DNA of 64,000 nt from Escherichia coli (GCF_003334255.1 NZ_QOWU01000019.1); one strand, 5' to 3'. Shown: positions 11,002 through 20,785, counted from the first letter of the stretch. Notes: generated from the sequence alone by a model not told the origin. Translations and numbers: made by a program.

Positions 11002-11973
11002 TTACTTAGCTGCCTGAATATCAGCCAGCATTGGGGCAAGGGCTGGGTTGTCCTTAGCGAAGTTTGCGTACATTGGCTGTACTTTCTCGATAAACGGAGC
11101 TTTATCTACCTGGTAGACTTTCACGCCCATTTTATCCAGTTTTGCAAATTCTTGTTTCTCTTCCTCGCTCCACAAGTCTTTCATGTAGCTCATTGATTCT
11201 TTAGCTGCTTTTAATATAACTGCCTGATTTTCCTGGCTAAGTTTATCAAACGCAGCATTGCTCATCAGAACCACATCGGGAACCATAGTGTGTTCGTCAA
11301 GGCTGAAGGATTTTGCCACTTCACCGTGACGCATGGTAGTCAGCGCCATCACGCTGTTTTCTGCCATATCGACCACACCCTGCTGTAAGGCTGTATACAA
11401 CTCGCCGTAATCCAGTGGCGTCGGGTTACCGCCCATGACTTTGATCATTTCAACTGCGCCAGGGCTTGGCTGGACACGGACTTTCATGCCTTTCAGATCG
11501 TCTGGTTTCAGTACTGGTTTATTGCCATAGAAACTGCGGGCGCCTCCATCATAAAAAGTCAGCCCGAAATAACCTTTGCTTTTCGTTGAGTCGAGGATTT
11601 TTCTCCCGATATCGCCCTGCATGACCTGATAATAATGATCACGATCGCGGAACAAATAAGGCAGGCTAAATAATTTATAGGAATTTTCAAATGCTTCCAT
11701 TTCTGCCGCATTGGTTTTTACCAGGGGAATAGCGCCAGAACGAATCAGCTCCATTGTTTCTCGTTGAGTACCCAATGTTCCATTTGGATAAATACGAATA
11801 GTAATATCACCGTTAGAGTACTCTTTGCTCTTTTTCGCAAAGAACTCCATCGCTTTATGAACAGGATGAGACTTATCCTGATTATGACTCAGTTTTAATG
11901 TCACTGCCCAGGACTGGCTTGCGGATAACATAAGAACAGCACCGATAATGCCAGCGGATACTTTTATTTTCAT
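11002..11973 (-). CDS. TRAP transporter substrate-binding protein (DctP family)
   Basis: 323 aa with signal peptide; co-located with DctM and DctQ homologues. Confidence 0.8.
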   Translation of the reverse strand: MKIKVSAGIIGAVLMLSASQSWAVTLKLSHNQDKSHPVHKAMEFFAKKSKEYSNGDITIRIYPNGTLGTQRETMELIRSGAIPLVKTNAAEMEAFENSYKLFSLPYLFRDRDHYYQVMQGDIGRKILDSTKSKGYFGLTFYDGGARSFYGNKPVLKPDDLKGMKVRVQPSPGAVEMIKVMGGNPTPLDYGELYTALQQGVVDMAENSVMALTTMRHGEVAKSFSLDEHTMVPDVVLMSNAAFDKLSQENQAVILKAAKESMSYMKDLWSEEEKQEFAKLDKMGVKVYQVDKAPFIEKVQPMYANFAKDNPALAPMLADIQAAK

Positions 11974-12025
11974 AGATGTTCCTTTTCTAATAAATATGGC
12001 GGCAGGTGCCGCCAGTGAATGCGCA

Positions 12026-13327
12026 TCAGTAGCCCAGTGCTCTTGGCAATGCCATACTGATTTGCGGAATATAGGTCACCATTGCCAGCACCAATACCAT
12101 CACGGCATAGAATGGCAGCATAGGTTTGATAATTTTATTAATCGGTAATTTAGATACACTACAACCGACAAATAACACACTGCCTACAGGCGGAGTACAA
12201 ATACCGATACACATGTTCAGTACCATGACAATACCAAAGTGAATCGGGTCCATGCCCAGTTCGGTGACAACCGGTAAAAATATCGGCGTAAAAATCAGTA
12301 CCGCCGGTGTCATATCCATAAAAGTGCCGATAATCAACAGGATAATATTGATAATAAGCAGGATTATTATTGGGTTGTCAGAAATAGTGTTAAGCAAATC
12401 GAGAATCAGGAAGGGAACGTCAGCGTTTGACATTGCCCATGACATACCCATCGAAGAACCAATTAATAACAAGACAATTGCAGTGGTAATAACGGATTCC
12501 AGAAATATTTTAGGTAAATCTTTAACTGAGATTTCACGATAAAGAACCAGTGCAAGGAAAAGGGTATAAATTACTGCAATTGCGGAGGCCTCTGTCGGGG
12601 TAAAAATACCACTTAATACACCCCCCATAATTAAAATAATCAGGAAAATACTGGGGATAGCCATCCATATCGCAACGCCAGCCTGGCGTAAAGTCGGGCG
12701 TTCTGGCTTTGGATAACCGCGACGTACCGCGATAATACCGGCTATTACCATCAGTGCCAGACCCAGCAAAATTCCCGGAACATAACCCGCCAGGAACAGT
12801 GCGGCAATAGAAGTACCACCACTGACCAGTGAATAGACGATTAACGTATTACTTGGTGGAATAAGCAAACCCGTCGGGGCAGAGGCAACGTTAACCGCAG
12901 TACTGAATGCCGGGTCGTAACCCTCTTTAACCTGTTGCGGATGCATGACGCCGCCCATCGCAGCCGCCGAAGCCACGGCTGAACCAGAAATTGCCCCGAA
13001 CAGCATATTGGCGAGAATATTACAGTGGGCAAGTGAGCCTGGCAGACGACCGCCGAGAATACGGGCAAAGTTGATTAATCGTCGCGCTATTCCTCCATGG
13101 TTCATAATGTTGCCAGACAAGATAAAAAATGGGATTGCCAACAACGTAAAACTATCTAACCCGGAGGCTAACTTTTGGGAAACCACACTCAATGCTGAGT
13201 TGAAATCGAGTTGTGTGGAAATTGATGCCAGTGTCGATAAACCAATGGCATAAACAATAGGTACACCTAATGCCAACATAAAAAAGAAGGCACCAAATAA
13301 CACAATAATCGGTAACCAGTAATCCAT
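12026..13327 (-). CDS. TRAP transporter large permease (DctM family)
   Basis: 433 aa polytopic membrane protein. Confidence 0.85.
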   Translation of the reverse strand: MDYWLPIIVLFGAFFFMLALGVPIVYAIGLSTLASISTQLDFNSALSVVSQKLASGLDSFTLLAIPFFILSGNIMNHGGIARRLINFARILGGRLPGSLAHCNILANMLFGAISGSAVASAAAMGGVMHPQQVKEGYDPAFSTAVNVASAPTGLLIPPSNTLIVYSLVSGGTSIAALFLAGYVPGILLGLALMVIAGIIAVRRGYPKPERPTLRQAGVAIWMAIPSIFLIILIMGGVLSGIFTPTEASAIAVIYTLFLALVLYREISVKDLPKIFLESVITTAIVLLLIGSSMGMSWAMSNADVPFLILDLLNTISDNPIIILLIINIILLIIGTFMDMTPAVLIFTPIFLPVVTELGMDPIHFGIVMVLNMCIGICTPPVGSVLFVGCSVSKLPINKIIKPMLPFYAVMVLVLAMVTYIPQISMALPRALGY

Positions 13328-13369
13328 AATTTCTCCATTCCTACTATGGTTGGTTGTTGTTTGTTATCT

Positions 13370-13870
13370 TTAGAGTGGTTGTTTAAGTTCGGTTAAAACC
13401 ATATCTATGGTGTATATAATAATAAGTACACCACTAATCGGGATGCTCATATAGATATATCCCATTTGCCAGCCTAAAGCGGGCGAGGTCTGACCTGAAT
13501 CGAATGTATCCATCGTTAATAGCCCACCACCATATACCATAATGATGGTTGCGAAGATAATAACGATAATCTGAATACACAAAAATAAATGACGTCGGGC
13601 TTTTCCTTTCAGCATCATAGGTAGCAGGTCAATCGCCAGATGCCGGTTTTGCCCTGCGGTGTATGCCCCACCAAAAAGTCCAAGACAAATAAAGAGCAAA
13701 CGGCTGAGTTCATCTGTAAAAATACTGGGACTAGTAAATATAAATCGTGCAGCCACCTGCCACGTCACACATGCCACGATGATCGCCAAAATGGTAATGT
13801 TCAATGCTGCAAGCAGAGCATTAATAGATCTAATTATATTTCGCATAGTGATTAACCTTTGCAATATCAT
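13370..13870 (-). CDS. TRAP transporter small permease (DctQ family)
   Basis: 166 aa, four hydrophobic segments; immediately upstream of DctM. Confidence 0.75.
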   Translation of the reverse strand: MILQRLITMRNIIRSINALLAALNITILAIIVACVTWQVAARFIFTSPSIFTDELSRLLFICLGLFGGAYTAGQNRHLAIDLLPMMLKGKARRHLFLCIQIIVIIFATIIMVYGGGLLTMDTFDSGQTSPALGWQMGYIYMSIPISGVLIIIYTIDMVLTELKQPL

Positions 13871-15948
13871 TCATCCTGTGGCTGGTAAATTGTCCCATTA
13901 AGAAAACCAGGCCAGTTTTTTTCAAACCAAATACCTCGGATAATAGGAAACTCACGAACAGGTGTTTCTCTGACGTGAAAGATACCGTTGCAATAATGAA
14001 TAAGTAGTTTATCTTTTTTATCCTCAGTACGCTCTGAACGAAAGCGCCAGGCATCACAAAAACCATTTCGTGTTTGCGGAATAGAATTTCCATCCCTGTC
14101 GAGAATAATACGTGCTCCCCGACTACCACCACCTGCGTCAATATAATGCGTTAATTGCGTTAATACGGCGGCAGAAGTCAGTGCCATATGCCGCCACATA
14201 AACAGCTCGGCAACTTCACCCACATGTTTGATAGCCAATCCATGCCGTTGGACAAATTCGCTCAATAGCAGGGCATCGCGAGTGGCGCGTCGGACTTTAT
14301 CGGCATGGCAAATAAATCCCGCATGGTCAGACATTCGTGCCTGAATTTTTTCTCTCACAACCGACAACGGCATCCCGGTCCCGTTATCGTGCGCCTGAGT
14401 AATGATCTCTCTTATAGAAGCCAGTGTAGGAGCTACCAGCTGTGCTATATCTCCATCAATATTCCGCTTTTGCGTGCAACCAATAAAACGTGCCAGACGA
14501 ACAGCAAAAACCTGCCCGGCATTCAATGCTGCACCACCAGGGCGAGTGACGCCGTGTGTGCCAGCAACTTCCCCCACGGCGAAACAGCCGGGCAGGGAGG
14601 TTTGTCCCCAGATATCCACTTCAATGCCGCCATTCATATGCTGATTATTCATGGCAAACTGCAAAGGCTGTGTGGTGAGATCGTAACCGTGCATCTTATA
14701 CAGCGAGATAGACAGCGGATTCATTCGTTGCAGCCGTTCGATGGGCGATGGTGCCAGAGCGTCGTTATTTTCCAGATACGCGCGAACGTCGTCGTCCAGT
14801 CGATCTAATGAGAACGGCAGGTCACCCGGCACCGCTTCAGGATTGCGATTGAAATCCATAAATACCTGACGCCCTGATTGCTGCTCTTGCGCTACTGCCA
14901 TATCTAACAAGCTGGAGCCAAAATCCATCACCCGAGTGGCGTGGAACGGCCACTGATAGCCTTTACGGAAAATGTTTGAAGCCAGCTCCTGGGTGGTGCG
15001 ATAGTAATCCGCGAGGAAGTTATACTCGTTACCCTCAGCATCCACGGAATAGATATACGGGATCACCTGTACATAGGTGCCGGATAAATTCCACGGAAAC
15101 GTGCTACGCGGCGTGCCTATACCAAACTGGCTTTCGGTCAGATTGGTTAGCGTCAGGCCTTCCTCCAGCGCCAGCCCCAGCGAGCCAAAACATTTGTGTG
15201 GGTACACACTGTCGCGATAAAGCTCGCCAGGCCCTCCTGTTGCCAGTACCACATTGGGCGCAGTCACAATTGCCAGCCCCCAAGGGTTATGGGCGCGATG
15301 ACCGGTCGCGAGGATTGCCCCCGCAACACGGTCTTCGCCGTTTTCGTCACGCTGATGCAGCAGTTTAATCACTGTTGCACTGGTCAACACTGGAATGGCG
15401 AGGCGCTGTACTTCTTCCAACAGCACTTTCACCATTAACCTTGAGGTACGCGGCCCACACGAGGTTGCACGCCCGGCTTCGTCATGGTCGGTTTGATAAC
15501 GAAGAATCGCGCCATAGCGATCTTCCGGTAATTCCAGACCAAGATATTGCAACCCGCCAAGAGTGTGCAGAGAACCTACCGCTTCGACATAAGCGGTGTC
15601 GTGATCCATCGCCCCACCGCTCGCCAGTGCCTCTGCCAGTTTGGTGAAGTTGTCGCCGTTGCCCGCGGTAGCGGCGGTAAACAGTGTCTGTTTATCGGAA
15701 CCAGAACATGCCGACGTCCCCATATATAACCCGGCGGTGGCGATCAGCACATTTTGCTGGCGGCGTTTAAGTTCCACAGCTGCACGCAGCCCGGCTGCAC
15801 CACTGCCGACTACCAGGGCATCTGTTTGCCAGAGTGGGTAATCAACACCGTCTACCGTGACAACCCATGCGGGCTCTGCCTGTGCAAAACCCTTTGGGAA
15901 AGTAACGTGCGTCAGCGCATCAAGGATGGTGTCATCAAGCTGACTCAT
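13867..15948 (-). CDS. FAD-dependent oxidoreductase (fumarate reductase/succinate dehydrogenase flavoprotein-like FAD domain plus C-terminal extension)
   Basis: 693 aa; dinucleotide-binding motif VVGSGAAGLRAA near N-terminus; translationally coupled to neighbours. Confidence 0.6.
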   Translation of the reverse strand: MSQLDDTILDALTHVTFPKGFAQAEPAWVVTVDGVDYPLWQTDALVVGSGAAGLRAAVELKRRQQNVLIATAGLYMGTSACSGSDKQTLFTAATAGNGDNFTKLAEALASGGAMDHDTAYVEAVGSLHTLGGLQYLGLELPEDRYGAILRYQTDHDEAGRATSCGPRTSRLMVKVLLEEVQRLAIPVLTSATVIKLLHQRDENGEDRVAGAILATGHRAHNPWGLAIVTAPNVVLATGGPGELYRDSVYPHKCFGSLGLALEEGLTLTNLTESQFGIGTPRSTFPWNLSGTYVQVIPYIYSVDAEGNEYNFLADYYRTTQELASNIFRKGYQWPFHATRVMDFGSSLLDMAVAQEQQSGRQVFMDFNRNPEAVPGDLPFSLDRLDDDVRAYLENNDALAPSPIERLQRMNPLSISLYKMHGYDLTTQPLQFAMNNQHMNGGIEVDIWGQTSLPGCFAVGEVAGTHGVTRPGGAALNAGQVFAVRLARFIGCTQKRNIDGDIAQLVAPTLASIREIITQAHDNGTGMPLSVVREKIQARMSDHAGFICHADKVRRATRDALLLSEFVQRHGLAIKHVGEVAELFMWRHMALTSAAVLTQLTHYIDAGGGSRGARIILDRDGNSIPQTRNGFCDAWRFRSERTEDKKDKLLIHYCNGIFHVRETPVREFPIIRGIWFEKNWPGFLNGTIYQPQDE

Positions 15949-17486
15949 GCATCCTCCATCGGCGTAAACAGGCTACTTTCCATCAGGCGTGGGTGCTTGA
16001 TAATTGGACGGAAAGCCATATACGGCAGAATGTCGCGCTCAATCTCCACACCCGGCGCGATTTCAATTAATTCAACGCCTTCTGCCGTTAACTGGAATAC
16101 TGCGCGTTCAGTGATATACAACACTTCCTGACCACTTTGCTGTGCGTAGGCGGCGCTAAAAGTGATTTTTTCCACCTTGGTAACCAGTTTAGGGATTTGA
16201 CCTGACTGGGCGATATGCAAGCCATCTGGTGTTATATCGATCTTGCTGCCTTTAGCGTCGAACGTGCCGCAGAACACCACTTTACGGGCATTTTGCGCAA
16301 TTTCGAGAAATCCGCCGGGGCCAATCAGATTGCCATTGAGATGGGAGACGTTGACGTTACCGTACTGATCCATCTCTCCCATGCCGAGGAAGGTGATATC
16401 GATCCCTCCGCCACTGTAGAACTCAAATTGATCGAGTGATGGAATAATGGCATCGGCGTTGCGGGCGCAGCCGAAAAACGCATCATCCAGCATCATGCCG
16501 TTATGTACGCCTTGCTCGACGCTCAGCCATAAACTTTGGTAAGGAACGCCTTCGCGCAGCGCTACTCCTGGAATGCCGCCGGGAATACCAAAGCCAAAGT
16601 TGGTTGAAGCGCCAGCTACCAGTTCGCGTGCTGCCCGACGGGCAATCAGGCGACGTACCGGATGACTAACCAGTTCAATAGCGTCGTTAGAACTCAGACG
16701 GCGATGTTGGCCGCTGATGGTCAGGTCGTAACCGCCAAGATAGGTTTGTGGTTGTTCGCGGTGTTCAACGATGCCATCAACCAGAATGCCCGGTAATTTG
16801 ACCCGGCGTGGTTCAATCGCGCCAGCTTCCAGCACATCGCGTACCTGTACGAACACTTTGCCGCCGCTGTTGTGTGCTGCCAGCGCCATGGAATAGCTAT
16901 CCATATCAATCGCTTCTTCTTCAAGGCTGACGTTGCCTCGAGGATCGGCATAAGTGCCACGCAAAATCGCGTAATCCACTTTGAAAGGGCGATAACGAAG
17001 TTTGGTTTCACCGTCGATTTCAATCAGTTCTACCAGCTCGTCGGTAGTGCATTCATTCGACTTACCGCCGCCATTGCGTGGATCAACAAACGATCCCAGC
17101 CCAACGTGGGTAAAAAGCCCCGGACGTCCGGCGCCGATCTCCCGTAGCAGTGCCTGAATCACGCCACCAGGAAAGCAGTAGGCTTCAATCGTGTTATTTT
17201 TTACCAGCGCCTGCATTTTGGGCGACCAGGTAAAGTGCCCGGCAATAATGCGTTTGAGCATCTCTGCGTGCGCAAAACGATTAGTGCCTTTGCAGTCGCG
17301 ATCGCCAATACCCAGCGAGTGGATTAGCGTCAGGTCGCGAGGGTGTCCGGTTTGCAGGAAACGCGCTTCAATAGCAGCCAGAATATGGTCGGCTTCCACC
17401 ATACCGCCGCCGTTACCGCTAATAGCAATAGTCGCACCGTCCTGAATTTGCGCCGCCAGTGCCTCGGCGGTTGTTATCTTACGCAT
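15945..17486 (-). CDS. Family I CoA-transferase (fused A/B subunits; acetate/3-oxoacid CoA-transferase-like)
   Basis: 513 aa; overall resemblance to fused-subunit CoA-transferases. Confidence 0.65.
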   Translation of the reverse strand: MRKITTAEALAAQIQDGATIAISGNGGGMVEADHILAAIEARFLQTGHPRDLTLIHSLGIGDRDCKGTNRFAHAEMLKRIIAGHFTWSPKMQALVKNNTIEAYCFPGGVIQALLREIGAGRPGLFTHVGLGSFVDPRNGGGKSNECTTDELVELIEIDGETKLRYRPFKVDYAILRGTYADPRGNVSLEEEAIDMDSYSMALAAHNSGGKVFVQVRDVLEAGAIEPRRVKLPGILVDGIVEHREQPQTYLGGYDLTISGQHRRLSSNDAIELVSHPVRRLIARRAARELVAGASTNFGFGIPGGIPGVALREGVPYQSLWLSVEQGVHNGMMLDDAFFGCARNADAIIPSLDQFEFYSGGGIDITFLGMGEMDQYGNVNVSHLNGNLIGPGGFLEIAQNARKVVFCGTFDAKGSKIDITPDGLHIAQSGQIPKLVTKVEKITFSAAYAQQSGQEVLYITERAVFQLTAEGVELIEIAPGVEIERDILPYMAFRPIIKHPRLMESSLFTPMEDA

Positions 17487-17495
17487 ACAATTTCC

Positions 17496-18278
17496 TTATT
17501 GATTATGGAAGCTCACGCTACTTTTTTCGGCAAAGGCGCGCGTCGCCTGCTGGCAATCCTGAGTGGCAGACATTAATCCGGCCAGTAGCTGGTGCGGGTA
17601 ATCGGCATGTTTATTTTCCAGTGCCAGAATCAGTTGCTTAATATGCGCCAGTGCCACCGGGCCGCATTTTTCCAGCTGCGCTAACTGGTTCGCCATCCAG
17701 CTTTCCACCTGTTCTTTTTCTACCACTTCATCAATTAAATTCGCCGCCTGGGCTTCCTGCGCCGTCAGGCGTTTACCCAGCATCAGCATCTGGCGACCGA
17801 CCACCGGACCAACCTGATTAAGCACACGTTCAATGCCCATCCAGCCAGGCACCATGCCGAGCATCACTTCCGGGTTAGAGAATTTCGCGCCGGGGCGGGC
17901 AATACGAATATCGCAGCACAAGGCCAGTTCAATACCACCGCCGATGGTATGACCGTTGAGATTCGCAACGGTTAATTGGGGTAAGTTTCGCAGGCGATTA
18001 AAAACGTCATTACCGCGTTTAATCCATTTTCTGCCCATATCTAATGGCGAATAGGCCGACCACGATTTAATATCGCCGCCCGCACAAAAGAATTTATCGC
18101 CGGTTGCCGTTAATTCGACTAATCGTAATGTGGTGTCGTTTTCAATTTCATTTAAATAATGGTCGAGAGATTCGATCATCTCTTCGTTAATAGCATGACA
18201 TTTATCTTCACGGTTCAATGTCAGGCGGCAGGAAGCCGCCGCTCTGCTGAACAGAACGGGTTGGTCACTCATGATCAT
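17496..18278 (-). CDS. Enoyl-CoA hydratase/isomerase (crotonase family)
   Basis: 260 aa; crotonase-fold motifs (FCAGGDIK). Confidence 0.75.
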   Translation of the reverse strand: MIMSDQPVLFSRAAASCRLTLNREDKCHAINEEMIESLDHYLNEIENDTTLRLVELTATGDKFFCAGGDIKSWSAYSPLDMGRKWIKRGNDVFNRLRNLPQLTVANLNGHTIGGGIELALCCDIRIARPGAKFSNPEVMLGMVPGWMGIERVLNQVGPVVGRQMLMLGKRLTAQEAQAANLIDEVVEKEQVESWMANQLAQLEKCGPVALAHIKQLILALENKHADYPHQLLAGLMSATQDCQQATRAFAEKSSVSFHNQ

Positions 18279-18281
18279 TCC

Positions 18282-19124
18282 TTAACAATAATGCGCGATG
18301 CGATCGACGCTAATATCCAGCGTGCTGTTAATATCTTTTTGCCACCAGTACGGCGAGAATATTTCCAGTTCAATAGCGCCATTAAATCCGGCGTTTTCAA
18401 CCAGCCGACGAATTGACGGAATATTGATGACGCCATCTCCCGGCATACCACGGTCATTGACCAGATCAGTGGTCGGCACTAACCAGTCGGAAACATGAAA
18501 CGCGAGGATGCGTTTTCCGGCACGCAGGATCTGACTGGCGAGATCCGGATCCCACCAGACGTGATAAACATCCACCGCCACGCCGAGGCCAAACTCACCA
18601 TCGGGATCGAGTTCATCACACCAGTCCAGCGCCTGGCGTAACGTGCACAGGCAAGAGCGATCGGCAGCTGTCATCGGGTGCAGTGGCTCCAGCGCAATTG
18701 GCACGCCGACATCTTTCGAATGTGGCAGCAACTGGCGAATCCCTTGTTTCACTTGTTCTCGCGCTTCATATAGATCTTTAGTGCCCGTTGGCAGACCGCC
18801 AACCACCTGCATATAACAGGCGGCGTTAAGCACCGCTGCGTCGTCCAGCGCCCGGCGGTTATCATCAATCGCCAGTTTGCGTTCCGCCAGTGTCGGCGCG
18901 GTGTAGTAAGTGCTACGGCACAAACCGGAAACGCTCATGTTACTGGCGGCAAGCTGGTGGGCGATTTGCTGGAGATCTTCACCTTGCAACTCCCTGCGCC
19001 AGGGAGCAATCGCGCCAATACCACGCGCGGCGCAGGCATCAATAATGGCGGGTAGCGGCGTTTTATAGCCCAGTGTTGCGGTATTGATACTGAATAAATC
19101 CGGGCGTTGTAACAGATCTCTCAT
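18282..19124 (-). CDS. Sugar phosphate isomerase/epimerase-family protein (xylose isomerase-like TIM barrel)
   Basis: 280 aa; family-level resemblance only. Confidence 0.55.
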   Translation of the reverse strand: MRDLLQRPDLFSINTATLGYKTPLPAIIDACAARGIGAIAPWRRELQGEDLQQIAHQLAASNMSVSGLCRSTYYTAPTLAERKLAIDDNRRALDDAAVLNAACYMQVVGGLPTGTKDLYEAREQVKQGIRQLLPHSKDVGVPIALEPLHPMTAADRSCLCTLRQALDWCDELDPDGEFGLGVAVDVYHVWWDPDLASQILRAGKRILAFHVSDWLVPTTDLVNDRGMPGDGVINIPSIRRLVENAGFNGAIELEIFSPYWWQKDINSTLDISVDRIAHYC

Positions 19125-19133
19125 GATTCAGCC

Positions 19134-19967
19134 TCAGAAGCGCGGCATACTTAAGCCGCCGTCGATGGCGACCGCCTGACCACAGGTGTAAATCAGTTTA
19201 CCTTCCGCCATCGCGCGGACAGTGGAAGCAATATCAGCCGGATAACCCCAACGTCCCCACGGCACCAGACCTTTGGCAATCAGTTCGTCGTAATAAGCCG
19301 TTGCCGGAATAGTCATATCAGTTTTGATGAGACCTGGGCGCACTTCATAAACGCCAATTTGTTCATTACAAAGGCGAGCTGCAAATAGACGAGCAGCGGC
19401 AGAAACGGCGGTTTTGGCAATGGTGTATTCGCCGCGATTCATCGCCAGCATGATGGCGTTGATGGAACTGACGAAAATAATCGAGCGGTGCGGCAGTTCC
19501 GCTTCCGGTTTCGGCTGTGCCAGTAAACGCTTACTGAATGCCTGAGCAAGGAAGAACGGCGCGCGGGTGTTAATGGCAATGTTTTGATCGAAGCTGTCTG
19601 GTTCGAGGTCGAGGAGGTCACCGCGTTTTTTCACTGAAATGCCTGCGTTGTTGAGCAGGCAGTCCAGACGTCCCCACAGGTTTTGCGCCGCGTCGAGCAT
19701 CTCTTCATGCAAGGAGAGATCGCCGACATCGGCAGGGAAGCAAATCACTTCCACGCCTTCAGCTATACATTCTTGTTGTGTGATATGCAGTTTTTCTACG
19801 CTGTCGGCATCGGGAAGATCGTTAATCAGCAGGTTAAATCCGCCACGAGCAAGCTCCAGCGCACAGCCCTTTCCAATACCACGAGCGGCTCCGGTAATCA
19901 CGGCAACAGGACGAGTGGATTTCATACAATAGCTCTCTTTTTTTGAATATTGTTTTCTAAGTGACAA
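19134..19967 (-). CDS. Short-chain dehydrogenase/reductase (SDR); true start probably at MKSTRPVAVITG (~19925)
   Basis: VAVITGAARGIGKG Rossmann motif. Confidence 0.8.
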   Translation of the reverse strand: MSLRKQYSKKESYCMKSTRPVAVITGAARGIGKGCALELARGGFNLLINDLPDADSVEKLHITQQECIAEGVEVICFPADVGDLSLHEEMLDAAQNLWGRLDCLLNNAGISVKKRGDLLDLEPDSFDQNIAINTRAPFFLAQAFSKRLLAQPKPEAELPHRSIIFVSSINAIMLAMNRGEYTIAKTAVSAAARLFAARLCNEQIGVYEVRPGLIKTDMTIPATAYYDELIAKGLVPWGRWGYPADIASTVRAMAEGKLIYTCGQAVAIDGGLSMPRF

Positions 19968-20113
19968 TTAGCTTGCGACGTGCCGCAAGAAAGATCAACC
20001 ATCTGGTTGGTTGATATGCGATAGTGATCACAGGACATTTGATAACTTGATGAAAGTACAAGTTTTTATCCTTTTTACTGGAGCTTCTAATTAATCGGGT
20101 TAAGATAGTTATC

Positions 20114-20785
20114 TTGAAGAGGTCGTGGGGAAGCGTTATGTATCTTGATACCAGCAACGTACAGAGCCTGAAGGAAAAGCTGCTGTTATGCGCGGTTAAT
20201 GAATTTGCCGAATATGGTTATGAAGGGGCCAGGGTCGATAATATTGTTAAGGCTGCGGGGTGTAGTAAACAGACGGTTTATCATCACTTTGGTAATAAAG
20301 AAAATTTATTTATTGAAGTACTGGAATATACCTGGAACGATATTCGACAAAAAGAAAAGGCCCTTGATTTCTCAGATCTTCCGCCACAAAAAGCCATTGA
20401 GAAAATTATTGATTTTACATGGGATTATTATATTGCTAATCCCTGGTTTTTAAAAATTGTGCATAGTGAAAATCAAAGTAAAGGTGTGCATTATGCAAAA
20501 TCACAGCGTCTCTTAGAAATTAACCATGCGCACTTGCAGTTAATGGAATCCTTATTGGATGAAGGGAAGAAACACAATATTTTTAAGCCAGATATCGACC
20601 CATTGCAGGTGAATATTAATATTGCTGCGCTTGGCGGATATTATTTGATCAACCAGCATACGCTTGGCCTGGTTTATCATATCAGTATGGTTTCCCCCCA
20701 GGCACTGGAAGCCAGACGTAAGGTCATCAAAGAGACAATCCTTAGCTGGCTTTTGGTTGACCCTTCATCTACCGCGCACGAATAA
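20114..20785 (+). CDS. TetR-family transcriptional regulator (full-length counterpart of the K-12 ytfA remnant, by position)
   Basis: N-terminal TetR HTH ([44 protein letters not shown]); divergent from the catabolic operon; 3' end overlaps ytfB 3' end. Confidence 0.8.

Follow-up and report, generated by a model that had tools for sequence, protein, structure and literature searches.

What is the operon in the rplI-ytfB interval of Escherichia coli for, and which compound do its transporter and enzymes handle? In the window analysed here, a stretch of 64,000 nucleotides (NZ_QOWU01000019.1) whose coordinates count from its first letter, this interval (11002-20785) contains nine intact open reading frames (ORFs), that is, eight minus-strand genes and a divergent plus-strand tetR. 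In order from the promoter end, the eight genes encode a short-chain dehydrogenase/reductase (SDR), a triose-phosphate isomerase (TIM)-barrel protein, an enoyl-CoA hydratase (ECH), a CoA-transferase, a flavin adenine dinucleotide (FAD) enzyme, and the DctQ, DctM and DctP subunits of a tripartite ATP-independent periplasmic (TRAP) transporter. With a probability of roughly 0.55, the locus is read from sequence comparison as a functional catabolic operon for a hexuronate-like sugar acid, which would be repressed by TetR and possibly activated by CRP.

A sequence-only reading of the same DNA had described eight co-directional, mostly translationally coupled genes beside a divergent tetR between rplI and ytfB, and this description holds. 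All of the genes are intact, the family assignments stand, and the gaps down the operon are 9, 9, 9, -4 (an ATGA overlap), 20, 42 and 52 nt, with a Shine-Dalgarno-like motif before each gene. The outer limits, 11002 and 20785, were correct as well; the starts of the SDR, ECH, DctQ and TetR genes, for which the longest ORFs had been used, shift by 6-42 nt when start codons are taken, as they are here, from the RefSeq annotation of near-identical copies in E. coli C122. Relative to the syntenic Klebsiella huaxiensis locus, the ratio of nonsynonymous to synonymous substitution rates (dN/dS) is 0.03-0.07 for eight of the nine genes; for dctM, dS is too saturated for the ratio to be given, and dN is 0.033. 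Such values indicate that the genes are kept by strong purifying selection and are real rather than chance ORFs. Because every ORF is intact and dN/dS is this low, the possibility that the locus is a non-functional relic was rejected.

Transporters and the class of substrate

The strongest evidence on the class of substrate comes from two unrelated importers, alternatives at this locus, each of which is of a sugar-acid family. In the window the importer is a three-component DctPQM system. The periplasmic solute-binding subunit DctP (11002-11973; 323 aa, with a signal-peptide-like N-terminus) and the large permease DctM (12026-13327; 433 aa) score above the cut-offs of their family models (TIGR00787, 246.5 bits, cut-off 175; TIGR00786, 458 bits, cut-off 268), and RefSeq names all three subunits. 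The small permease DctQ (13370-13846; 158 aa) takes its name from the C122 ortholog, and its counterpart in K. huaxiensis is annotated with PF04290.

Among solved structures, DctP comes closest to TRAP binding proteins of the Enzyme Function Initiative (EFI; E 1e-56 to 1e-71). The documented glucuronate/galacturonate binders among them, which include 4N15, 4N91 and 4MHF (PMC7660916), match at E 1e-60 to 1e-71. All contacts of the glucuronate binders are kept, N31, Q32, R146, R166, N206 and D233 of DctP corresponding to N35, Q36, R150, R170, N210 and D237 of STM3169. The two arginines of the carboxylate clamp, R146 and R166, equivalent to R150 and R170 of STM3169 (PMC7660916), are invariant in the DctP alignment. 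At the position of STM3169 E74, DctP has Gln70, as do the uxu-linked proteins of Vibrio and Aeromonas. Outside the group linked to the present cluster, the nearest relatives of DctP (53-61% identity) occur in Vibrionaceae, Aeromonas and Providencia, and those of V. cholerae and A. veronii (56-59%) sit inside classic glucuronate regulons with UxaC, a mannitol-dehydrogenase-family reductase, UxuA, a PfkB kinase, KDPG (2-keto-3-deoxy-6-phosphogluconate) aldolase and a GntR/FCD regulator, to which V. cholerae adds a gene of the GH2 beta-glucuronidase type. By its sequence, DctP falls in the hexuronate-binding clade.

Like the hexuronate TRAP systems with which it was compared (Salmonella STM3169-3171; Bamb_6123, 4N15; Apre_1383, 4N91; Bpro_3107, 4MHF; and the uxu-linked DctPQM of Vibrio and Aeromonas), the transporter of the window has three components and keeps the DctP contacts. 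Unlike the uxu-linked systems, it is joined to five unrelated enzymes, and none of uxaC, uxuA, uxuB, kdgK and eda is found in or beside the cluster. The alternative importer, a 425-aa protein of the major facilitator superfamily (MFS), belongs to the anion:cation symporter group (TIGR00893, 315 bits; DgoT, E 2e-40), which is typified by carriers of D-galactonate, glucarate and hexuronates. The uptake of an organic acid, suggested earlier from the gene content, is therefore supported, and the DctP clade together with the DgoT-like MFS carrier narrows it to a probable hexuronate-like sugar acid.

The flavoenzyme and its gene neighbourhoods

The signature enzyme of the cluster is an FAD-dependent oxidoreductase of 693 aa (13867-15948), a divergent, stand-alone member of the FrdA/SdhA/NadB fold. 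PF00890 (FAD_binding_2) matches residues 43-475 (E 8.4e-28), a GSGAAG motif lies at residue 48, and the AlphaFold2 (AF2) model (pLDDT 89) follows the four-domain plan of FrdA, its best match in the PDB (TM 0.66, 17% identity). The nearest solved relatives, FrdA and SdhA, are just 15-19% identical, and relatives found by fold search in AFDB50 are unnamed. The enzyme shares with FrdA, SdhA and NadB a His/Arg pair, H437 and R469 aligning in the family profile with H351 and R386 of NadB, the substrate-carboxylate pair. It differs from them in lacking the full dicarboxylate active site, as the cap-domain His (NadB H244, in NQFHP) is replaced by an invariant Gly276 (SQFGIG) and the remaining cap is unaligned; it also has an enlarged cap, an extra C-terminal beta-domain and the family-specific invariant motifs GSDKQ and KGYQWPF, and no gene for an Fe-S subunit (FrdB/SdhB) is found in the window cluster or the syntenic loci. 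Even with this incomplete site, the model is consistent with a soluble FrdA/NadB-type enzyme that would act next to a carboxylate.

Three database entries (P0002, 1078 aa; P0034, 973 aa; P0086, 1043 aa) carry PF01144 and PF00890 in one protein. Given the 4-nt ATGA overlap between the CoA-transferase and flavoenzyme genes, these fusions probably reflect frameshifts or annotation errors, although some may be genuine.

The family of the flavoenzyme comprises 422 representative clusters at E<1e-30, full-length and 35-58% identical. From it, 80 loci with 10-kb flanks were sampled, and the neighbouring genes were clustered and then annotated; these loci span Alpha-, Beta- and Gammaproteobacteria, Planctomycetota, Lentisphaerae, Verrucomicrobia, Clostridia and others. 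The commonest neighbour is an SDR, present in 30 of the 80 at a loose threshold of at least 30% identity, and an ortholog of the TIM barrel occurs in 12, mostly accompanied by a Gfo/Idh/MocA dehydrogenase. In Pseudescherichia, Phytobacter and Mangrovibacter the arrangement is TetR-SDR-Gfo-TIM-MFS-FAD, in Verrucomicrobia and Lentisphaerae TIM-Gfo-SDR-FAD, and in Brenneria TetR-SDR-TIM-FAD with a PcaK-like MFS protein (an aromatic-acid/H+ symporter) and no CoA genes. Rhodobacteraceae and Rhizobium loci have a sugar ATP-binding cassette (ABC) transporter, two glucose-methanol-choline (GMC) oxidoreductases, a levoglucosan-dehydrogenase-like Gfo protein and LacI upstream, and a kinase resembling 2-keto-3-deoxygluconate (KDG) kinase after the flavoenzyme. 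Phycisphaerae combine the flavoenzyme with an SDR and KDPG aldolase, some of their loci having a large NAD(P)H oxidoreductase similar to old yellow enzyme (OYE) and GltD upstream. The family thus sits in carbohydrate gene clusters in many phyla.

Homologs of the hydratase and/or the CoA-transferase are less frequent in the sample, in 15 of the 80 loci, with both in eight. On a Rhizobium megaplasmid, a complete operon has the gene order CoA-transferase, enoyl-CoA hydratase, aldehyde dehydrogenase, sugar ABC, GMC, GMC, Gfo, FAD enzyme, sugar kinase and aldolase, so that the CoA-transferase/hydratase pair also travels with the flavoenzyme in a plainly carbohydrate operon. A gut Clostridia locus with the flavoenzyme and this pair additionally holds a fructuronate-reductase-like gene and LacI, and a betaproteobacterial locus adds a MaoC dehydratase and a set of acyl-CoA dehydrogenase and electron-transfer flavoprotein (ETF) genes. 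The sequence-only reading had placed CoA activation of the imported acid at the start of the pathway. This is probably not the case: SDR and TIM barrel accompany the flavoenzyme without CoA genes in Brenneria, the Pseudescherichia group, Verrucomicrobia and Lentisphaerae, and are its commonest partners, and the CoA-transferase is of a short-chain type, so that the CoA steps more likely handle a later, smaller intermediate.

The same observations bear on another explanation, in which the cluster is a self-contained route resembling beta-oxidation, its substrate being a small hydroxylated or unsaturated acid that is not a carbohydrate; in essence this is the scheme of the sequence-only reading. 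The CoA-transferase would directly activate the imported acid, the flavoenzyme would saturate or desaturate the acyl-CoA, the crotonase would hydrate it, the FabG-like SDR would oxidise the 3-hydroxyacyl-CoA and housekeeping thiolases would finish the cycle, with the TIM barrel as an accessory isomerase. CoA-transferase, hydratase, FabG-like SDR and flavin dehydrogenase formally make up one turn, the Pct/YdiF-like transferase fits short-chain specificity, and the betaproteobacterial locus with acyl-CoA dehydrogenase/ETF and MaoC points the same way, as does TetR, which weakly matches the models of the fatty-acid regulator FadR (Bacillus) and the acrylate regulator AcuR, as it does RutR, all below cut-off. 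This explanation is nevertheless considered unlikely, as both alternative transporters are of sugar-acid families, flavoenzyme, SDR and TIM barrel recur without CoA genes in several lineages and in carbohydrate contexts, and FrdA/NadB-type enzymes use free carboxylates, for which the His/Arg pair is retained. Moreover, the TIM barrel is as strongly conserved as the other genes (dN/dS 0.047).

It has also to be asked whether the flavoenzyme works in the reductive direction, as a soluble enoate- or fumarate-type reductase in a mainly anaerobic route, an unsaturated acid derived from the imported compound serving as an electron sink in the gut and not as a carbon source. Its fumarate-reductase fold would suit this role, and related soluble members of the fold, such as the urocanate and acrylate reductases, serve as electron sinks. 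The flavoenzyme family is represented in many anaerobes (Clostridia, Lentisphaerae, Planctomycetes, Succinatimonas), the OYE/GltD-like oxidoreductase lies upstream in some Phycisphaerae loci, and no aerobic phenotype was recorded on Biolog plates. However, the E. coli operon encodes no electron-donor module, and the family is equally common in operons of aerobic Rhizobium and Rhodobacteraceae that end in a kinase and an aldolase, which implies assimilation. A reductive role, though improbable, is compatible with sugar-acid catabolism and does not exclude it.

The remaining enzymes and a proposed route

The SDR (19134-19925; 263 aa) is a classical member of its family, with TGAARGIG at residue 11, NNAG at 92, S153 and Y167-x3-K171, and Asp36 at the end of beta-2 suggests that it is NAD-dependent. 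It passes NF009386 (PRK12745; 417 bits, cut-off 250), a model whose generic name, '3-ketoacyl-ACP reductase', is uninformative about the substrate. The TIM barrel (18282-19124; 280 aa) is a xylose-isomerase-like metalloenzyme, putatively an isomerase, epimerase or dehydratase of a keto-sugar or keto-sugar acid (PF01261, AP_endonuc_2, E 1.8e-37; AF2 model pLDDT 87.5, TM 0.88 to 3qc0). It is 50% identical to SMc04130 (3qc0/3ju2) and 40% identical to 7vpf ('novel putative sugar isomerase'), the former being structural-genomics entries and all three having no assigned function; the next structural tier, at 15-21% identity, consists of IolI, ketose 3-epimerases, QuiC1, Hyi and YcjR. It scores below the models of the characterised subfamilies IolO (28 bits, cut-off 300) and Hyi (26 bits, cut-off 353). 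Residues E146, D185, H188, H210, D213 and E252 are invariant in its alignment and would be the metal ligands.

The crotonase-fold enoyl-CoA hydratase (17496-18272; 258 aa) has as its best NCBIfam match a short-chain ECH model, below cut-off at 151 bits, and many ECH models score 100-150 bits, none above an equivalog cut-off. Its motifs GGGIE (E115) and PEVMLG (E135) contain both catalytic glutamates, which, mapped by motif, we take to be the equivalents of E144 and E164 of rat ECH. The fused family-I CoA-transferase of the YdiF/propionate-CoA-transferase type (15945-17486; 513 aa) aligns with YdiF (PDB 2ahu, E 1e-113) over residues 6-508, the catalytic E333 of YdiF corresponding to E324 in SVEQG, and lies below the equivalog cut-off of FadX (383 vs 750 bits). 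Homology searches of the FAD enzyme and the CoA-transferase, which had been advised in the sequence-only reading, thus lead to FrdA at 17% identity and to YdiF at this E value. As in YdiF of K-12 and Pct of Megasphaera and Clostridium, the transferase is a single-chain alpha-beta fusion of ~515-530 aa with a catalytic Glu; its genomic context differs from theirs. A near-identical BL21 protein, ECD_04073, has been listed as putative, missing from K-12 and sharing 46% identity with Megasphaera elsdenii propionyl-CoA transferase, and was silent in five BL21(DE3) transcriptome conditions, for which reason it was omitted from the metabolic model of that strain (PMC6150544).

Every enzyme of the cluster except the flavoenzyme, with its replaced cap His, retains the expected catalytic motifs and is predicted to be competent. 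None reaches a function-specific NCBIfam cut-off, the generic PRK12745 of the SDR being the sole model passed, and no published functional study of the pathway or of the cluster enzymes was found, the sole relevant paper being that on the BL21 model (PMC6150544). There is no evidence of a known pathway, and the earlier description of the cluster as uncharacterised is borne out: it matches no characterised pathway, nor does K-12 carry the same intact cluster, either of which would have spoken against that description.

Clusters related through the TIM barrel provide a further clue. In Paraburkholderia, Erwinia, Paroceanicella and Sinorhizobium (plasmid/chromid), TetR, a Gfo/Idh/MocA protein, a TIM barrel of ~50% identity and an MFS or tripartite tricarboxylate transporter (TTT) carboxylate carrier occur together, with a ~390-aa protein of the dihydrodipicolinate synthase (DHDPS) family in the place of the flavoenzyme; the Paraburkholderia cluster also has a CoA-transferase and MaoC. 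The neighbourhood of the solved protein SMc04130 is among these sibling clusters, all of which are uncharacterised. The DHDPS-family protein looks like a non-orthologous replacement of the flavoenzyme step. DHDPS-family enzymes act on 2-keto-3-deoxy acids, and their presence in the sibling clusters is therefore a further pointer to sugar-acid chemistry.

A substrate of different nature has some claim at this point, namely a hydroaromatic or carbocyclic acid shaped like a pyranuronate (quinate, shikimate, cyclohexane-carboxylate), which would undergo dehydrogenation by the SDR, dehydration by the TIM barrel, conversion to a CoA thioester and, through the flavoenzyme, desaturation or reduction of the ring. 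In structure, the TIM barrel resembles the dehydroshikimate-dehydratase domain of QuiC1 (5hmq), and the Brenneria version of the cluster has the PcaK-like aromatic-acid/H+ symporter. Alicyclic-acid pathways (Bad/Ali) use CoA, crotonases and SDRs, and the paralogous CoA-transferase YdiF presumably adjoins ydiB/aroD in K-12. However, the match to QuiC1 is distant (19% identity) and no closer than that to ketose epimerases, and in other phyla the flavoenzyme is accompanied by sugar ABC transporters, KDG kinase and KDPG aldolase rather than by genes of aromatic pathways. In addition, BL21(DE3), which has the MFS form, showed no growth with quinic acid across five Biolog replicates (PMC6150544 S6/S7). 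Such a substrate is held to be improbable.

For a sugar acid, the closest parallels lie in pathways in which a dehydrogenase creates a carbonyl and a TIM barrel acts beside it, as for myo-inositol (IolG/IolE/IolI), levoglucosan (LgdA/LgdB), 3-keto-glycosides (YcjS/YcjR; BT2157-2159) and L-threonate/D-erythronate (LtnD/OtnI). The dehydrogenase partner is an SDR in the window cluster and a Gfo/Idh/MocA protein in the sister clusters, whose best matches, below threshold, are levoglucosan dehydrogenase and IolG. Unlike the window cluster, these pathways have neither an FrdA-like flavoenzyme nor a CoA-transferase/crotonase pair. Enterobacterial precedent for sugar-acid catabolism through CoA thioesters is given by the 2-deoxy-D-ribonate acyl-CoA route of Klebsiella michiganensis, in which a single cluster combines a CoA-transferase with MFS sugar-acid transporters (Price et al. 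2019, PMC6365646). That set lies at another locus and includes a CoA synthetase, beta-hydroxyacyl-CoA dehydrogenase, thiolase, lactonase and glycerate kinase, without a flavoenzyme, TIM barrel or crotonase (PMC6365646). The deoxyribonate pathway was rejected as the identity of the window cluster, from which the CoA synthetase, beta-hydroxyacyl-CoA dehydrogenase, thiolase and glycerate kinase are all absent.

The operon can accordingly be imagined to work in five steps, of which the last four, and their order, are inferred from family chemistry and gene neighbourhoods. DctP would hold the acid in its carboxylate clamp of Arg146 and Arg166 for import through DctQM, after which the NAD-dependent SDR would oxidise a ring or chain hydroxyl to a ketone. 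The TIM-barrel metalloenzyme would then enolise beside the new ketone and isomerise, epimerise or beta-eliminate, a proposal made because its relatives (IolI, IolE-type enzymes, YcjR, Hyi and dehydroshikimate dehydratase) work in this way. The flavoenzyme, with its His437/Arg469 pair, could carry out a two-electron redox reaction at C-alpha/C-beta (or C2) next to the carboxylate. Finally, the Pct/YdiF-type CoA-transferase would convert a short-chain acid product to its thioester, probably taking the CoA from acetyl-CoA, and the crotonase would hydrate or dehydrate the thioester before it enters housekeeping acyl-CoA metabolism.

Several points weigh against a hexuronate-like sugar acid as the substrate of such a pathway. 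E. coli already catabolises glucuronate and galacturonate via ExuT/UxaC/UxuAB, and an identical substrate would therefore be redundant. The four cluster-linked DctPs (E. coli, K. huaxiensis and two others) share the private substitutions K34, T66, T87, F140, S207 and D188, with AENN changed to AENS next to the contact Asn206, which suggests a related but not identical ligand. The cluster contains no aldolase, lyase or thiolase, so that the pathway cannot be closed on paper, and it encodes no redox partner for the flavoenzyme, whose reaction is a guess from the modelled fold and two retained residues. Part of the co-occurrence with SDRs may be non-orthologous, given the loose threshold. On Biolog PM1/PM2 plates, no sugar acid was used by BL21 (MFS form) but not by K-12 (PMC6150544 S6/S7); either the substrate is outside the panel, or the operon was uninduced. 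None of the carbon sources in the comparison of the two strains is accounted for by the cluster. In the same data, BL21(DE3) was weakly positive on glucuronamide and K-12 and REL606 were negative, a difference not consistently linked to the cluster (PMC6150544 S6/S7).

More specifically, and at less than even odds, the operon may encode an undescribed sugar-acid route. In it, a uronate-type intermediate, already oxidised or eliminated, would undergo a new redox reaction catalysed by the new stand-alone FrdA-like flavoenzyme family, which is conserved in lineages as distant as Enterobacteriaceae, Planctomycetes and Clostridia. The Pct-type CoA-transferase and the crotonase would then release some of the carbon as a short-chain acyl-CoA. 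The substrate would be a host- or plant-derived hexuronate analogue beyond the Uxa/Uxu route, such as iduronate, a uronate with a methyl group or a double bond, or a keto-aldonate. If true, this would explain why most commensal and pathogenic E. coli retain the locus and K-12 lost it.

Regulation, distribution and transporter exchange

The TetR/AcrR-family regulator (20138-20785, plus strand; 215 aa) is assigned by RefSeq, with TetR_N and TetR_C_29 recorded on its orthologs, and a region of 212 bp separates its gene from that of the SDR. A search for the operator in this region, proposed in the earlier reading, yields a perfect 8-6-8 palindrome, ATCAACCA-N6-TGGTTGAT (19994-20015), as the best candidate. 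Its core, CAACCA-N6-TGGTTG, occurs once in the window (0.18 expected) and is invariant in E. coli B2, K. oxytoca, K. huaxiensis and Salmonella, while the intergenic region is just 61% conserved overall. The TetR helix-turn-helix (HTH) domain, the divergent orientation and the intergenic palindrome together point to a local repressor, with the role of the palindrome as operator being predicted, and repression fits the silence of ECD_04073 in BL21 under laboratory conditions (PMC6150544). The effector would presumably be the substrate or an acyl-CoA intermediate.

Two base pairs from the palindrome lies a CRP-like candidate site, TGTGATCACTATCGCA on the operon strand (20017-20032), with one mismatch to TGTGA-N6-TCACA. 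Both half-sites are conserved across the four genera; the number of CRP-like matches in the window is at chance level, and the site is kept as a candidate on its position and conservation. The sole other near-consensus match in the window is at 9256-9271 (TGTGATGAACTTCAAA), between yjfY and rpsF. A scan for sigma-70-like promoters gave 13 matches, compared with 14.3 in shuffled sequence, and no promoter was assigned.

The block of five enzymes is present, at a coverage of at least 80%, in 3115 of 5426 complete E. coli genomes. The importer takes two mutually exclusive forms, TRAP in 1448 genomes and MFS in 1686, the latter exemplified by a BL21-type strain and the B2 strain 83972. K-12-type genomes have rplI, yjfZ, a 102-bp SDR relic (81% identical to window 19735-19836) and an N-terminally truncated tetR, ytfA. 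The cluster therefore proves to be the intact form of a locus decayed in K-12, as had been surmised; of the two small remnants named at that time, ytfA is indeed a truncated TetR gene, and yjfZ is an unrelated DUF2686 gene, no relic of the cluster, since it coexists with the intact MFS form in some strains. The convergent genes tetR and ytfB share the last 17 bp of their coding regions (20769-20785), and this overlap persists in K-12, where just the C-terminal fragment of TetR (ytfA) remains.

There are signs that decay is ongoing in other strains. In O157-type genomes and other lineages, tetR is split by the insertion sequence (IS) IS609 (tnpA and TnpB), and strain DLI.6n has IS5 within the enzyme block. 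Genomes 100% identical to the window are ~776 bp longer than the query over this region, a sign of a possible insertion. The locus is old: its position between rplI and ytfB is occupied by the MFS form in K. oxytoca and some Salmonella, and by the TRAP form in K. huaxiensis.

The exchange between the two forms has a sharp right-hand boundary. Homology to MFS-form genomes begins at window position 14108 by megablast (query base 3209) and at 13885 by sensitive blastn, which places the recombination boundary (13885-14108) in the 3' end of the flavoenzyme gene. The flavoenzyme alleles of the TRAP and MFS forms are 94% identical overall and divergent in the last ~80 residues; the breakpoint is fixed, and these residues move with the transporter. 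On the left, the variable transporter module ends at ~10951, just past a G+C-rich hairpin (10912-10938). With both forms in Escherichia and in Klebsiella, the polymorphism is trans-specific. The TRAP genes have a GC content of 41-45%, against 50-55% for the enzyme genes. In E. coli 83972, an HTH-domain gene and a frameshifted gene for a HipA-family toxin are inserted between rplI and the MFS gene (2493-4256 of the retrieved locus).

The interval is flanked by rpsF-priB-rpsR-rplI on one side and by ytfB-fklB-cycA on the other. The hairpin at 10912-10938, found in a terminator scan, lies between an A-run and a T-run and could act as a shared bidirectional terminator of the convergent rplI and dctP. 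Between dctM and dctP, a terminator-like scan revealed a G+C-rich stem-loop on the minus strand, TGGCGGCACCTGCCGCCA (11997-12014), which might stabilise the mRNA or act as an attenuator, and in this way adjust how much binding protein is made.

As a locally regulated operon of transporter and enzymes, the system is of a familiar kind; what lends it wider interest is the unstudied flavoenzyme family, found throughout in carbohydrate surroundings, and the trans-specific TRAP/MFS polymorphism. The swap of TRAP for MFS at a fixed breakpoint in the flavoenzyme gene, in both Escherichia and Klebsiella, provides a clean natural example of the exchange of a transporter module. The majority of sequenced E. 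coli have the operon, B, C, B2/uropathogenic and many commensal lineages among them, and so do Klebsiella and some Salmonella; because K-12 does not have it, it escaped the genetics and biochemistry by which the metabolism of E. coli was defined. Identification of the substrate would correct strain-specific metabolic reconstructions, such as the BL21 model from which the CoA-transferase gene was omitted (PMC6150544), and would reveal what a widespread flavoenzyme family, with its hundreds of sequence clusters in different phyla, does. It would also add a nutrient niche to models of colonisation of the gut and the urinary tract.

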